Source: an uncultured bacterium (GTDB lineage: Bacteria > Patescibacteriota > Minisyncoccia > UBA6257 > 2-01-FULL-56-20). Taken from it: a stretch of DNA of 64,000 bases. The first letter of the stretch is position 1. Each line of letters begins with the position of its first letter. The DNA lies in contig CAVYIK010000003.1 in the NCBI GenBank assembly GCA_963768625.1, positions 129,274 through 193,273 of the forward strand, in the 5' to 3' direction. Below are positions 34,822 to 41,985 of this stretch, one piece after another. The position numbers were made by a program, and so were the translations under genes. A model generated the notes under the pieces. The model was given only the letters and a program-made list of their open reading frames with translations. It was not told where the DNA came from and did not search any database.

Positions 34822-34885
34822 CAGGTCCACCAGGCAAGCAAAAAGGGTTTGGGAGGAGTACTCGGAAGGGCTCCTTCCAAACCCT
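34822..34885 (+). repeat. long perfect hairpin, copy 1 of 3 (conserved loop UACUCGGAAGGG, 26-bp stem)
   Basis: GGCAAGCAAAAAGGGTTTGGGAGGAG - loop - CTCCTTCCAAACCCTTTTTGCTTGCC, immediately after tRNA-Ala. Confidence 0.8.
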
Positions 34886-35106
34886 TTTTGCTTGCCTGGT
34901 GGCCTCCTCGTTGTGGTGGAAGCGAACCCGAGCAGAACCCCGTGTAGGAAGGAGCGCGCGAAGCGCGGCGGGTGGGAAACCGAGGGTTTCCCAGATCGGG
35001 GGTCGGGGTGCTGCGACAGGGTTCGATTCCCTCCGACGGGCCTTTTGTTTTGGCTAAAAAAAGACTGCGGCGGCGGGGGTTAGCCGCGCGTCGCAGTCAG
35101 AATGCT

Positions 35107-35430
35107 TCAATGGCCCAAAAGCTTGGCCTTGCCGCTCGGCTTTCTTGTGATACAAAACACCCCGGGATAATACTCGAAAGCCACCTCGAGTACGATGGGA
35201 TCTTTGTCTGCATCCTGAAGCCCCGGGACAGCGCGGAGACTGGAAAGCCTACCGCGGCAACGCTTGCGCAGACGCTTGATGATGGCGAGAAGGCCGTGCG
35301 GGAAATTTTCCTTCATCATGCCGGGCGGGATGGTAAAGTAGCGCCTTCCTCCGCCCTCGTTTACCTCGACGATCATGTTCCCTTCCAGCCTGATGATCGG
35401 ATGAAATTTTGCGGGATGGGATTTGGTCAT
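35107..35430 (-). CDS. hypothetical protein
   Basis: 107 aa from MTKSHPAKFHPIIRLEGN; no motif recognised. Its start overlaps the stop of a 41-aa TM peptide ORF (ATGA). Confidence 0.4.
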   Translation of the reverse strand: MTKSHPAKFHPIIRLEGNMIVEVNEGGGRRYFTIPPGMMKENFPHGLLAIIKRLRKRCRGRLSSLRAVPGLQDADKDPIVLEVAFEYYPGVFCITRKPSGKAKLLGH

Positions 35431-35553
35431 TGACCTTTCCTCATCGGGCAAGGCGGCGCGGTTTTCGGGCGGTCGTAAGCCCCTGACGCAAATGCAACTA
35501 TGACGAATACTATGACCGCGATGGCCAGTATGACCCAGTTTAGCAAAGACATT
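35428..35553 (-). CDS. putative 41-aa single-TM peptide (MSLLNWVILAIAVIVFVIVAFASG...)
   Basis: Good Shine-Dalgarno GAGGGAG 8 nt upstream. Translationally coupled to the downstream ORF. Below the 60-aa ORF-track cutoff. Confidence 0.3.
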
Positions 35554-35615
35554 GCTTGTTTCTCCCTCAGACAGCCACTCTGTGACCGCCTCTTAGGTTG
35601 CTAAAAGCAATTATA

Positions 35616-36254
35616 TCACAAAAGCGGCGGTTGTCCAGTCGCGAGCGTGAAAAGTAAACTTATGATCGGCATGATGAGCTGGAACCCGAAGAAGACAAAA
35701 ACGAGGACGAGGAGCAATCCCCAGCGTTCCAGGAAATACATCGCGCGGTAGGTCGCGGGCGTCTGCGGCAGTGCGGCGAAAAGCACGCGCGATCCGTCAA
35801 GCGGCGGGATAGGAACAAGGTTGAATGTGCCGAGTAGGATGTTTATGAAGACGATGACTGCGAGCAGAGTGAGAAAAGAATCCGGCACCGCGGGGAAATA
35901 GGCAAGGATGCGGATCGCGATCCCGAAGATGGCGGCGAGGAGGAAGTTCGTGCCCGGCCCTGCGAGCGCGATCTTCACCGAGCCGGTTCGGGGGTTCTTC
36001 AGGTTGTTCGGATTGTAAGGCACCGGCTTCGCGGCGGCAAAGAAGAACGCGCCGCCCGAGGCGATATAAAGGAGGATGGGCATAAGAATTGATCCGAAGG
36101 GATCAAGATGCACGAGCGGGTTCAGCGTGAGACGCCCGGCGTTCCGCGCCGTGGGGTCCCCCAGCCGTTCCGCCTCATAGCCGTGCGCGATCTCGTGGAG
36201 TACCGCCGAAAAAAGCAAAACGATGAATTCAAAGATAGTGATTGCAATGTTCAT
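35616..36254 (-). CDS. site-2 protease family zinc metalloprotease (peptidase M50)
   Basis: HEIAHG (HExxH) and NLVPIPPLDGS (LDG motif); about 6 TM segments. Confidence 0.8.
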   Translation of the reverse strand: MNIAITIFEFIVLLFSAVLHEIAHGYEAERLGDPTARNAGRLTLNPLVHLDPFGSILMPILLYIASGGAFFFAAAKPVPYNPNNLKNPRTGSVKIALAGPGTNFLLAAIFGIAIRILAYFPAVPDSFLTLLAVIVFINILLGTFNLVPIPPLDGSRVLFAALPQTPATYRAMYFLERWGLLLVLVFVFFGFQLIMPIISLLFTLATGQPPLL

Positions 36255-39889: not shown

Positions 39890-41376
39890 TTATTGTACCG
39901 CCCCTTCGGCGTCGGCCAAAATCCCAGCCGGAACCGGCCGCCGAGCATGAGCCGCGTTTGCGCCTCAAGCCCCGGGAACGCGCCAAAGAGGACGAGAGTG
40001 AGCGGCATGAATACCCACTGCGCGAGATAGATAAGATATTCCCACCAGCGCGGTTTCGTGGGCTTCGGGGGGAGGAGAATAATGCTCAAGATCGCGGAAC
40101 TCACAATGCCGATCATGGAAAGCGAGATGATGAAGCGCGTGATGTGCGGCAGATTGTACGAGATGAGCGTGTAATTGAAATGTTCGCCGCCGAGGAAAAG
40201 CGGGAGCCAACCCAAGGCGAAGATCATGAGCGAATTCGTCGCCCACGAATGGAATCCCTCGATCACGTTGAACGTCCAGTAGCGCTTCTTCTCGGGCGGG
40301 ATCGCGGAGTCCTTCCGGAATCCTTCAAGCATGTAGGGTATGTTCTCGCATCCCCATCCCCACCGCCGCTGCTGCCGGTAAAGGTTCTTCATTGTGGCGA
40401 AGAAGGTCGGGGCGGCGTTCGCGTCCATCGAGATCGGATACAAAAGCGGCTCCACCCGGAAATCGCCATGATAGCGGAGAAATCCCTGCCAGAAGATCCG
40501 CGAATCCTCGGAAACAATGTCCTTCTGCCAAAAACCAATATCGAGGAGCACGGTGAGCGGGATGGATTGCGAAGAAAAAGAAGTGAGCCGCTCCGGGCGC
40601 GACTGCTGCATCATCTGCCAGAAGGTCGTGGAAAAAGCGACCACGCGCGCGATGGCGGGCGCTTCATATACGTTGTTCGTAAAGAGCGGGATCGGCTGAT
40701 AGATGGCACGCAAGCGGTTTTGCGCCGTGAGGAACGCATACGCAAGTCGGCCGAAATATTCCGGGAAGACCTGGGTATCTACATCAAAGACCGAAACGAG
40801 GACGTTCTCCGCCAGAATCTTTGCGGGATCAATGAATGCTTCCTTTGCCCGGAGTGCCGCCCACGTTTCGTTAGAACCCTTGCCGGGGATCTCGCCCGGA
40901 AGGCCCGCCGGATGCGCGGTCACTAAAAATCGGCCGAAGCGCCCGCCGAATTCTTTTTTGATCCGTTCCCCCACCGCGCGCGCCGCCTCTCCTGCACGCT
41001 CCTCGGTCGCAAGCACGATGAACAATTTCTCTTTTGGATAATGGGCGTCAAGGAGGCGGGTAAAACTATCCCTCACCACTTCGTACGGTTCGTGGTACAT
41101 AGGCAAGATGATTAAATGATGCAGATCTTCCCATCGCGGGCCGTCCGCAAGCTTCGCGAGCCATGCAAGCCAATCCACTTCCAGGTTCTTCCGCATCGCG
41201 GAAAAGGTCGCGCGAAGGTGGAGCGAGAGATAGATCGTCTTCAGCAGCCAATAGATGTCAAAAAGGATTATGAAAATCGCGACCCACGTAGGCGTGAGCC
41301 ATGAAAGCAAGAACATAAGGCCGATCGTCGCCCATGCGAGAGCTCCCGGCAGGATCTCAAACGATCTTTTTACCAT
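39886..41376 (-). CDS. processive family-2 glycosyltransferase (cellulose/chitin synthase-like), membrane protein
   Basis: N- and C-terminal TM segments; a cytosolic GT2 domain with D,D,D motifs and QRRWGWG (QxxRW). Confidence 0.7.
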   Translation of the reverse strand: MVKRSFEILPGALAWATIGLMFLLSWLTPTWVAIFIILFDIYWLLKTIYLSLHLRATFSAMRKNLEVDWLAWLAKLADGPRWEDLHHLIILPMYHEPYEVVRDSFTRLLDAHYPKEKLFIVLATEERAGEAARAVGERIKKEFGGRFGRFLVTAHPAGLPGEIPGKGSNETWAALRAKEAFIDPAKILAENVLVSVFDVDTQVFPEYFGRLAYAFLTAQNRLRAIYQPIPLFTNNVYEAPAIARVVAFSTTFWQMMQQSRPERLTSFSSQSIPLTVLLDIGFWQKDIVSEDSRIFWQGFLRYHGDFRVEPLLYPISMDANAAPTFFATMKNLYRQQRRWGWGCENIPYMLEGFRKDSAIPPEKKRYWTFNVIEGFHSWATNSLMIFALGWLPLFLGGEHFNYTLISYNLPHITRFIISLSMIGIVSSAILSIILLPPKPTKPRWWEYLIYLAQWVFMPLTLVLFGAFPGLEAQTRLMLGGRFRLGFWPTPKGRYNK

Positions 41377-41774
41377 CCGAGGAAGAACGCGCGGTCAAGC
41401 GAATACGAACCGCCGCCGTTCAATGCAAGCGCAAGCAGCCCGGCAAGGATAAGGAGATCAAATTCCCAACCGCCCACAAAGGGCTGTCTCTTTGCGATCT
41501 TCCAGATGACGATCGTTGCGAACTGGAGGGCGAAGAGCACGGCGAAGGCCTGGGTGTAAAAGCCGAGGACAAGCGCAAGGCCACCCGCACATTCAAGGAG
41601 CGCGACGAGCGTTCCCCAGAAACCGCCCGGCTTGAATCCCATGCCATTGAACATCGCGGCTGTCTGCTTCAGATTTTTGAGCTTCGGCCATCCGTGGACA
41701 AGGAAGATCGCGCCGAGCACGATGCGCAGCGCAAATACCCCGAACCCGCCGTAGAAAAAGAACGTAGAAAGCAT
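41370..41774 (-). CDS. DoxX family membrane protein
   Basis: 134 aa with four TM helices and the typical DoxX pattern LVHGWPKL... Confidence 0.7.
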   Translation of the reverse strand: MLSTFFFYGGFGVFALRIVLGAIFLVHGWPKLKNLKQTAAMFNGMGFKPGGFWGTLVALLECAGGLALVLGFYTQAFAVLFALQFATIVIWKIAKRQPFVGGWEFDLLILAGLLALALNGGGSYSLDRAFFLGW

Positions 41775-41839
41775 ATTGGTAAATAAAATGCCGACCTTTC
41801 AAAAATACCGATTCTATCTTATTATAGCAAGGATACAAC

Positions 41840-41911
41840 GGCCTCATCGTCTAATGGCCAGGACGGCGCCCTTTCACGGCGCAAATCGGAGTTCGATTCT
41901 CCGTGGGGCTA
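41840..41911 (+). tRNA. tRNA-Glu (anticodon UUC)
   Basis: Acceptor GGCCTCA/TGGGGCT (two G.U pairs); anticodon stem GCGCC/GGCGC; loop CTTTCAC; T-loop TTCGATT. Confidence 0.75.
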
Positions 41912-41985
41912 CGACACAAAAGCCAAAGGGGTTTGGAGCGAGTACTCAGAAGGGCTCCCTCCAAACCCCTTTGGCTTTTGTGTCG
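41912..41985 (+). repeat. long perfect hairpin, copy 3 of 3 (loop UACUCAGAAGGG)
   Basis: CGACACAAAAGCCAAAGGGGTTTGGAGCGAG - loop - CTCCCTCCAAACCCCTTTGGCTTTTGTGTCG, starting at the first base after tRNA-Glu. Confidence 0.8.

Follow-up and report, generated by a model that had tools for sequence, protein, structure and literature searches.

Long palindromic hairpins with a conserved tip at tRNA and gene ends in Paceibacteria: a candidate family of two-way terminators

Three very long, nearly perfect hairpins lie at gene ends in a 64-kb stretch of genomic DNA (here called the window) from an uncultured bacterium of the Patescibacteriota (contig CAVYIK010000003.1, 588 kb long), one after a tRNA-Ala gene, one after recG and one after a tRNA-Glu gene. 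From their sequence we infer that they are probably terminator-type hairpins that work in both directions at gene 3′ ends and that form a lineage-specific family with a conserved apical module. We place about even confidence in this reading.

Anatomy, covariation and distribution of the hairpin family

An inverted-repeat search showed that each hairpin is 76 nt long and consists of two 32-nt arms and a 12-nt loop, with the shared form TACTCRGAAGGG (Table 1). The loop is TACTCGGAAGGG in copies 1 and 2 and TACTCAGAAGGG in copy 3. The arms of copy 2 are 100% complementary, those of copy 1 form 31 Watson-Crick pairs and one G-T pair (97% complementary), and those of copy 3 pair at 31 of 32 positions (97%), with a single C-C mismatch below GAG/CTC. 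Inner stems are 14-15 bp long and G-C rich, and the folding free energy of the whole hairpins ranges from -58 to -65 kcal/mol. A first-pass annotation, made from the sequence alone, had proposed these three hairpins, and all are present, at or within 5 nt of where it placed them. The core that it proposed fits copies 2 and 3, whereas copy 1 differs slightly and reads TTTGGGAGGAG...CTCCTTCCAAA. Its statement that the outer arms differ completely did not hold: copies 1 and 3 are 84% identical there, and copy 2 alone has diverged (64%).

Only these three perfect inverted repeats of at least 16 bp with a spacer of at most 220 nt occur in the 64 kb, against a chance expectation that we estimate at ~0.003, and the 18-mer GAGTACTCRGAAGGGCTC has three exact matches in the window, where 0.04 would be expected with as many as 3 mismatches tolerated. 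With its filters switched off, a covariance-model search of the window found no fourth copy. The flanks of the three copies have no direct repeat in common. Scanning the whole window against Rfam 15 at the gathering threshold gave only tRNAs; beyond tRNAs, E-value scans of positions 34700-35200 and 41800-43300 gave only microRNA-precursor models, far under their gathering scores.

We aligned nine copies from 4-5 genomes, ungapped and anchored on the loop. A standard pair occupies 93.8% of the alignment cells, both-sided (compensatory) changes occur in 25 of the 32 pairs, and none of 500 shuffles equalled the observed covariation; the earlier claim that pairing is kept despite sequence change was thus borne out. 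When the 3′ partner was shifted by 1-3 columns, pairing fell to 37-55%. Among the three orthologous tRNA-Glu hairpins (window, L003 and L006), several arm positions vary, each with a matching change in its partner. The few mismatches are clustered at pairs 27-29, just under the invariant GAG/CUC.

Across pairs 7-26, all 180 cells are Watson-Crick and none is G-U; pairs 6-26 contain a single G-U in 189 cells, at pair 6. Since no copy departs from Watson-Crick pairing at pairs 7-26, one strand can fold as well as the other, and the + and - strands have nearly equal energies (for hairpin 1, -64.8 kcal/mol on the + strand and -58.5 kcal/mol on the - strand). Selection on a single RNA normally permits G-U pairs, each of which becomes an A-C mismatch when the opposite strand folds. 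Hence, the near-absence of G-U pairs suggests a constraint on both strands, imposed either by bidirectional use or by a palindrome at the DNA level. We conclude that the G-U-free pairs 7-26 point to a two-strand constraint and not to selection on one RNA alone.

Relatives' loci (L numbers) came from pattern scans of genome and metagenome collections and from recG neighbourhoods at 67-80% RecG identity, the RecG homologues being named Minisyncoccia, Paceibacterota or Patescibacteria, which places the window in a bacterium of the candidate phyla radiation (CPR). Six further family copies were found in related Paceibacteria contigs. The covariance model scores 82-94 bits, and the opposite strand scores ~25 bits lower. 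Scanning the genome collection for the core gave two real matches, both in one relative, the complete 899-kb OY970175.1, where the exact core occurs twice; a match in an archaeon (L002) has no palindrome and was set aside as chance. The metagenome scan gave only L005, with a pattern that was over-strict in requiring GG...CC beside the core, and scans of viral contigs for the hairpin core and for the hairpin motif of elements A and B (described below) gave chance matches only. No family member is present in the syntenic 16-22 kb of L008-L010 and L012-L015, and the recG-end hairpin is absent from the matching intergenic spacer in L008, L009 and L010. With two cores per 899 kb and none in these syntenic regions, the family is low-copy, limited to this lineage and patchily distributed. 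Literature searches on Patescibacteria terminators or hairpins yielded no relevant account.

Gene-end position, arm polarity and proposed termination

All nine copies (the three hairpins of the window and the six homologues) are intergenic and lie 0-14 nt past a tRNA or a stop codon, always in sense orientation, in agreement with the placement directly after a tRNA or coding sequence noted by the first-pass annotation. Hairpin 1 overlaps the final 6 nt of tRNA-Ala; since that gene ends at 34832, the 5′ arm contains the tRNA's own CCACCA. Hairpin 3 starts at the discriminator base of tRNA-Glu. Hairpin 2 is midway between two convergent stop codons, 14 nt from that of recG and 14 nt from that of a pilin-like open reading frame (ORF). 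In L005, where one copy lies between convergent tRNA genes, we read a promoter-like TTGTTT-17-TAAGAT between the hairpin and tRNA-Phe.

Three zones follow one another outward from the loop in each tRNA-linked copy: the conserved apical stem, a G+C-rich block (GGG(G)TTTGG... / ...CCAAACCC(C)), and an A-rich 5′ arm facing a T-rich 3′ arm. The first-pass annotation had set termination aside on the grounds that no U-tract follows the hairpins. Copies 1 and 3 do have a T-rich run immediately after the inner stem, as do most homologues (7 of the 9 family members in all); this run belongs to the 3′ arm and pairs with A-rich sequence in the 5′ arm (junctions in Table 1). It was overlooked because T's were sought past the complete 32-bp stem. 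We tabulated 15 long hairpins: all nine of the family, the three L013 members of a sister sub-family, and from L014 and L015 three unrelated hairpins that follow tRNAs. In every one of the 15, the outer 5′ arm has 5-12 A versus 0-4 T, and the 3′ arm mirrors it (sign test, p ~6e-5 by our calculation). Because the structure is palindromic, this polarity gives a U-rich 3′ arm to RNA copied from each of the two strands; the reverse polarity would serve neither. The occurrence of long A/T-polar hairpins at the same tRNA ends in relatives suggests a class property of the tRNA ends of this lineage. Ordinary intrinsic terminators are also in use in this host, as at 42176-42155(-) and 44926-44899(-), where a consensus terminator scanner found them.

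In the proposed mechanism, the tRNA-Ala, recG/pilin-like and tRNA-Glu units would be closed by palindromes made of an A-tract, a G+C-rich stem and a U-tract. RNA polymerase would first copy the A-rich 5′ arm and then the inner stem and loop. By the time the inner stem (14-17 bp, GGGTTTGG..GAG / CTC..CCAAACCC) had folded, the RNA-DNA hybrid would contain the U-rich bases that open the 3′ arm, and release of the transcript would follow. Through the complementarity of A-tract and U-tract, polymerase on the opposite strand would meet the same layout. A strictly Watson-Crick stem fits such a two-way terminator because any G-U pair would be mismatched on the other strand. Bidirectional intrinsic terminators likewise have an A-rich 5′ flank, a G+C-rich stem and a complementary U-rich 3′ flank, are found at gene ends and between convergent genes, and fold equally well on both strands. 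Unlike them, the hairpins described here have stems of 27-35 bp (~5-14 bp is typical), a nominal loop of 12 nt and a tip of ~34 nt that is conserved over loci and genomes; moreover, copy 1 pairs beyond the U-run, and copy 2 has no clean U-run.

Several observations weigh against termination. The 3′ arms of copy 2 and of the L005 copy after a coding sequence are pyrimidine-rich without a clean U-run, and past the full 32-bp stem no U-run follows any of the three copies in the window. In copy 1, 13 more perfect base pairs, including the CCACCA of the tRNA, lie beyond the T-run; a terminated copy 1 transcript would lack the 3′ partner of those 13 bases. Stems of 27-35 bp with a nominal 12-nt loop are far outside the usual range of terminators. 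The consensus terminator scanner that we used allows loops of 3-8 nt only and so missed the hairpins. Elements A and B start within ~10 nt of the hairpin, on the tRNA strand at 9 of 9 loci, a gap too short for a promoter; if RNAs, they would therefore depend on read-through of the hairpin. Finally, termination does not account for the strong conservation of the loop. If the hairpins are terminators nevertheless, they show how the reduced genomes of Patescibacteria close tRNA genes, by very long symmetric hairpins, and they provide gene-finders and RNA sequencing (RNA-seq) studies in this phylum with a usable marker of transcription-unit ends.

The conserved tip, tRNA-linked elements and rival readings

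The family is defined by an apical module of ~34 nt, YTTGRnnnGAG-UACUCRGAAGGG-CUCnnnYCAAR. RNAfold adds two Watson-Crick pairs (C-G and U-A) and a U-G within the 12-nt loop, leaving a loop of 4 nt; the predicted tip consists of GAG/CUC, U-G, A-G, C-G and U-A, followed by an NRGA tetraloop (CGGA, CAGA or AAGA). Solely the first two tetraloop bases vary. The loop variant G6 is shared by copies 1 and 2 alone, which suggests a duplication within this genome or lineage. By our inspection, the geometry of the loop does not suit a sarcin-ricin or k-turn motif.

A sister sub-family in L013 has a different conserved tip, GAACTGGTTTGTGCGA, and a longer variant, and one of its copies is reverse-oriented. 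At the orthologous tRNA-Glu site of L013 the outer arm ACAAAAAGGGTTT is the same as in L003 and the window, and the tip is GAACTGGTTTGTGCGA instead, so that the stem there is homologous and the tip alone exchanged. Downstream of tRNA-Ala in L009, the inner-stem motif TTTGAAgCG...CgCTTCAAA encloses 104 nt of inserted sequence and not the tip. Long perfect stems of other kinds (16-37 bp) are common at the tRNA and recG ends of relatives; their sequences are unrelated and their architecture is alike, with interiors that range from loops of 10-20 nt to branched inserts of 91-120 nt. The tip therefore appears to be a small module that is gained, lost or replaced on locus-specific stems, and the hairpins are one sub-family of a broader class of post-tRNA hairpins in the lineage. 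As to why the tip is conserved, common descent with spread of the module could explain it, as could binding by some factor. A third conserved module, C (CGCTCGCCCCGATTGCMGAAATGCACGCAATGGCATTTCGGACCWAGCCAATCGGGGCTRCGCGGTCCG), was also seen, at L004 7925-7995 after the family hairpin and at L009 ~5830-5895 inside the loop of a long inverted repeat.

Hairpins 1 and 3 are each followed by a structured module, element A (~130 nt; not part of the hairpin) and element B (~150 nt), and both have relatives elsewhere (Table 1). In the closing helix of element A, a T-arm-like segment in antisense orientation, GGAAGCGAACCC, pairs with a sense T-arm copy, GGGTTCGATTCCC. Its interior has an 11-bp P1 and two hairpins, one with the loop CCGAGGG, and TTTTGTTTTGG directly follows the element. 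The consensus fold of A-type elements comprises the closing helix, the 11-bp P1 with an A-U to G-C switch, a variable P2, and P3 with the invariant loop CCGAGGG; in L003, the element A core is within the leader of tRNA-Glu and would thus be transcribed with a tRNA. The first bases of element B, GGAGAATCGAAC, are antisense to the T-arm of tRNA-Glu, and its last bases, GATTCTCCGTGGGG, repeat the tRNA-Glu 3′ end in sense orientation from the T-loop on, at 14 of 14 positions. The same holds for B elements in general: the local tRNA 3′ end (Glu, Ala or Arg) is copied in antisense at their start and in sense at their end; elsewhere the sense copies match tRNA-Glu in L003 (19/20), tRNA-Arg in L012 (19/19) and tRNA-Ala in L008. 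The A and B families share GTGTAGGARGG and the hairpin with the CCGAGGG loop and are always on the tRNA strand. Neither element matched Rfam. That they are tRNA genes on the minus strand was rejected: ARAGORN reports none, and in our reading the reverse complement forms no acceptable T-arm.

The hairpins could instead serve RNA processing or stability, as an RNase III substrate or a block to 3′ exonucleases that separates the tRNA from a cotranscribed element A or B, in the way that processing stems act in rRNA operons. We consider this unlikely. RNase III needs a duplex of ~20 bp, and all stems exceed that length and are fairly constant at 27-35 bp; at eight loci, a long hairpin lies between a tRNA and a same-strand A or B element with no room for a promoter, and the L003 core in the tRNA-Glu leader also fits. 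However, a processing site does not need the consistent A-rich/U-rich polarity seen in 15 of 15 hairpins, nor does it require a lack of G-U pairs. The window's recG copy, both L005 copies and the L006 tRNA-Lys copy have no downstream A or B element, and the L004 tRNA-Pro copy has element C. The RNase III stems that flank rRNAs and tRNAs likewise put a long perfect duplex on a transcript between its structured RNAs. They arise, however, where complementary segments far apart pair around the mature RNA, and not from a local A/U-polar hairpin. Nothing here specifically favours processing or stability over termination. The termination, processing/stability and DNA-palindrome readings are not mutually exclusive and can hold together.

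The last of these takes the hairpins as mobile or self-perfecting palindromes at the DNA level, similar to REP or miniature elements, with termination a by-product: the ~34-nt tip or the whole hairpin would spread to intergenic sites or replace other tips, and hairpin-templated repair (template switching) would keep the arms perfect. Gain and loss among close relatives (the recG copy missing from L008-L010 and syntenic loci lacking the family), the G6 variant of copies 1 and 2 with the duplication it suggests, the tip exchange at the L013 tRNA-Glu site together with the opposite orientation of the same tip elsewhere in that genome, the insert in the L009 tRNA-Ala hairpin, and the strictly Watson-Crick stems all agree with this account. 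We nevertheless regard it as doubtful, since the copy number is very low (three in 64 kb and two exact cores in OY970175.1), the three window copies have neither target-site duplications nor shared terminal repeats, no transposase was identified, and the viral contigs gave no real matches. A pure DNA palindrome also does not predict that the loop should be sense-oriented in 9 of 9 copies (~6 independent loci). The first-pass annotation had held that many decayed copies resembling miniature inverted-repeat transposable elements (MITEs) would speak against an RNA element, and no such swarm was found. Assignment to MITEs was rejected for the lack of target-site duplications, the unshared arms and the low copy number, and assignment to REP or REPIN elements for the few copies, the locus-specific arms and the flanks without a shared repeat. 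REP-type elements have hundreds of copies and conserved arms and can stabilise or terminate upstream transcripts. The REP, BIME and REPIN elements of proteobacteria resemble the family in being intergenic, hairpin-forming, downstream of genes and strain-variable; they differ in that here the tip alone is conserved, the arms are locus-specific and each genome has few copies. We know of no RAYT-type transposase for this hairpin family. The paired DNA uptake sequences of Neisseria and Haemophilus are also conserved within terminator hairpins for a reason other than termination. In those sequences, conservation falls on the stem and copies number about one per kb; in this family it falls on the loop and apical stem, and copies are very few.

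The sense copies that end B elements are the footprint that an element would be expected to leave if it inserted into the T-loop and restored the tRNA; the hairpin would then be a terminator brought along by the inserted module. We entertain, tentatively and with low confidence, the idea that the hairpins are the leading part of miniature non-autonomous modules of this kind. Three parts would make up each module: a new 3′ end for the tRNA, a long hairpin whose tip can be exchanged, and a structured core of type A or B. Modules would move between Paceibacteria tRNA genes and act as landing pads for larger cassettes such as TIGR-Tas, and the 12-nt loop would be the putative recognition site of a trans-acting factor. 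A stricter version, in which the hairpin is a recombination site that a recombinase acting in trans reads as folded DNA, like integron attC or CTX-phage attP, seems to us highly improbable. It would accord with the bracketing of hairpin plus element B by a direct repeat of the local tRNA 3′ end at four loci (Glu, Glu, Ala and Arg; up to 19/19) and with the repeat that brackets the TIGR-Tas cassette (see below), but the arms are locus-specific and hence lack a shared box for binding, neither an A or B element nor a detectable repeat accompanies four family members, and no recombinase or integrase is present among the ORFs scanned at 31-57 kb of the window. An integron attC site as such was rejected, as there are no R/L boxes, extrahelical bases or unpaired central spacer. 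The swappable tip and the elements that copy tRNA 3′ ends hint at so far undescribed intergenic traffic around tRNA genes, which would bear on the acquisition of cassettes like TIGR-Tas.

Feature coordinates, the TIGR-Tas locus and side observations

Table 1. Coordinates of the hairpins, adjacent elements and genes in the window, and of related features in relatives (L numbers)
Feature	Location	Strand	Remarks
Hairpin 1	34827-34902	+	5′ arm 34827-34858, loop 34859-34870, 3′ arm 34871-34902; inner G+C-rich stem 34845-34858/34871-34884; CCAAACCC then T-run TTTTTGCTT (34885-34893)
Hairpin 2	38651-38726	+	arms 38651-38682/38695-38726, loop 38683-38694; stem perfect, 32/32
Hairpin 3	41911-41986	+	arms 41911-41942/41955-41986, loop 41943-41954; CCAAACCCC then TTTGGCTTTTGTG (41970-41982) in T-rich 3′ arm
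tRNA-Ala(UGC)	34759-34832	+	CCA encoded; ARAGORN and Rfam; unit putatively closed by hairpin 1
Element A	34914-35043	+	after hairpin 1
recG	36495-38636	+	stop codon 38634-38636, upstream of hairpin 2
Pilin-like convergent ORF	38741-39889	-
Sigma-70-like promoter of tRNA-Glu	41798-41825
tRNA-Glu(UUC)	41840-41912	+	CCA not encoded; ARAGORN and Rfam; unit putatively closed by hairpin 3
Element B	41995-42146	+	after hairpin 3
TIGR-Tas locus	42190-44850		perfect sigma-70-type promoter 44847-44818(-); terminator 42176-42155(-)
TIGR arrays	42190-43010 and 44380-44800		flank tas on both sides; mini-hairpins such as CGTCCCGAAGGACA
tas ORF	43016-44314	-	432 aa; NCBIfam NF052498, "TIGR-Tas system RNA-guided endonuclease", 115.9 bits (cut-off 100), E = 2.4e-33
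Family copy, L003	3591-3666		after tRNA-Glu; syntenic and orthologous with hairpin 3; CCC then TTTTTGTTTTGC
Family copy, L004	7846-7921		after tRNA-Pro, then a different module, element C; CCC then TTTTTGTTATGCTTTTG
Family copy, L005_Pro	5269-5344		between convergent tRNA-Pro and tRNA-Phe; CCATC then TTTGTTTTGTCC
Family copy, L005_cds	5485-5560	-	directly 3′ of stop codon
Family copy, L006_Lys	9025-9100		after tRNA-Lys; loop TACTAAGAAGGG; T-run GTTTTATTTGT only past entire stem
Family copy, L006_Glu	16641-16716		after tRNA-Glu; orthologous with hairpin 3; CCCCTCTG then TATTTTTCTTG
L013 sister sub-family	11403-11476, 4924-4994, 3824-3899
A-type relatives	L009 5924-6050; L013 11477-11600; L003 3440-3522		L003: core within tRNA-Glu leader
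B-type relatives	L003 3662-3830; L008 8239-8420; L012 8945-9110; L006		L006 partial
Long inverted repeat, L006	12189-12366		after recG
Long inverted repeat, L008	8096-8238		after tRNA-Ala
Long inverted repeat, L009	5762-5923		after tRNA-Ala
Long inverted repeat, L009	13813-13968
Long inverted repeat, L012	after 8836		after tRNA-Arg(CCU)
Long inverted repeats, L015	after 7788 and 8738		one after tRNA-Arg (37 bp), one after tRNA-Lys (30 bp)
Long A/T-polar hairpin, L014			after tRNA-Arg

The tas ORF is also weakly similar to the IS110 type. The first-pass annotation had linked the hairpin loop, through a shared GGAAGG, to 300-nt repeats nearby. Those repeats are the TIGR arrays, since the same short motifs recur on either side of tas, and the link was not upheld: no 12-mer of the arrays matches the hairpin arms. 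That TIGR spacers target the hairpins was rejected on the same comparison, in which the 12-mers match solely the second array block. In published TIGR-Tas systems, arrays flank tas and their stem-loop units are "variable but consistently palindromic"; in a guide unit, box C (RUGAUGA) and box D (CUGA) motifs flank two spacers within the loop (Faure et al. 2025, PMC12045711). The hairpins described here share with such units palindromic, variable stems around a conserved interior, and tas and its arrays lie 200 nt away. They differ in their 12-nt loop (UACUCRGAAGGG), which has no box C/D motif, and in their presence in relatives without tas in the syntenic region.

A 31-nt direct repeat, GCGGCCCACRGCCGYCCGAGCAGTGAGATTC, at 42107-42137 and 44856-44886 (29/31), corresponds to the 3′ end of element B, is followed by an A-tract at both places and brackets the entire TIGR-Tas cassette. 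The cassette thus looks inserted at the T-loop-like end of element B. An inverted repeat at 42133-42153/43217-43237 was discarded, being near chance once all compared pairs are counted (p ~0.03 by our estimate).

Two further observations stand apart from the hairpin family. Through a chance find with the loop pattern of elements A and B, the hairpin GGGGAACCGAGGGTTCCCC was seen beside CCCGAAGGGCGGGAGGGGG in five contigs of giant-virus metagenome-assembled genomes (IMG/VR; L018, L021, L025, L028 and L039); it is probably unrelated to the window. At 6570-6838(-) of the window, a tRNA-Thr(GGU) gene is split after the anticodon (positions 36/37) by a 195-nt insertion, 6608-6802, and ARAGORN misses this gene. 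The insertion has no Rfam intron match at E <= 0.1; a U directly precedes it and its last base is G, a pattern that group I introns also show. L014 has an intact copy of the gene, to which both exons are 100% identical.

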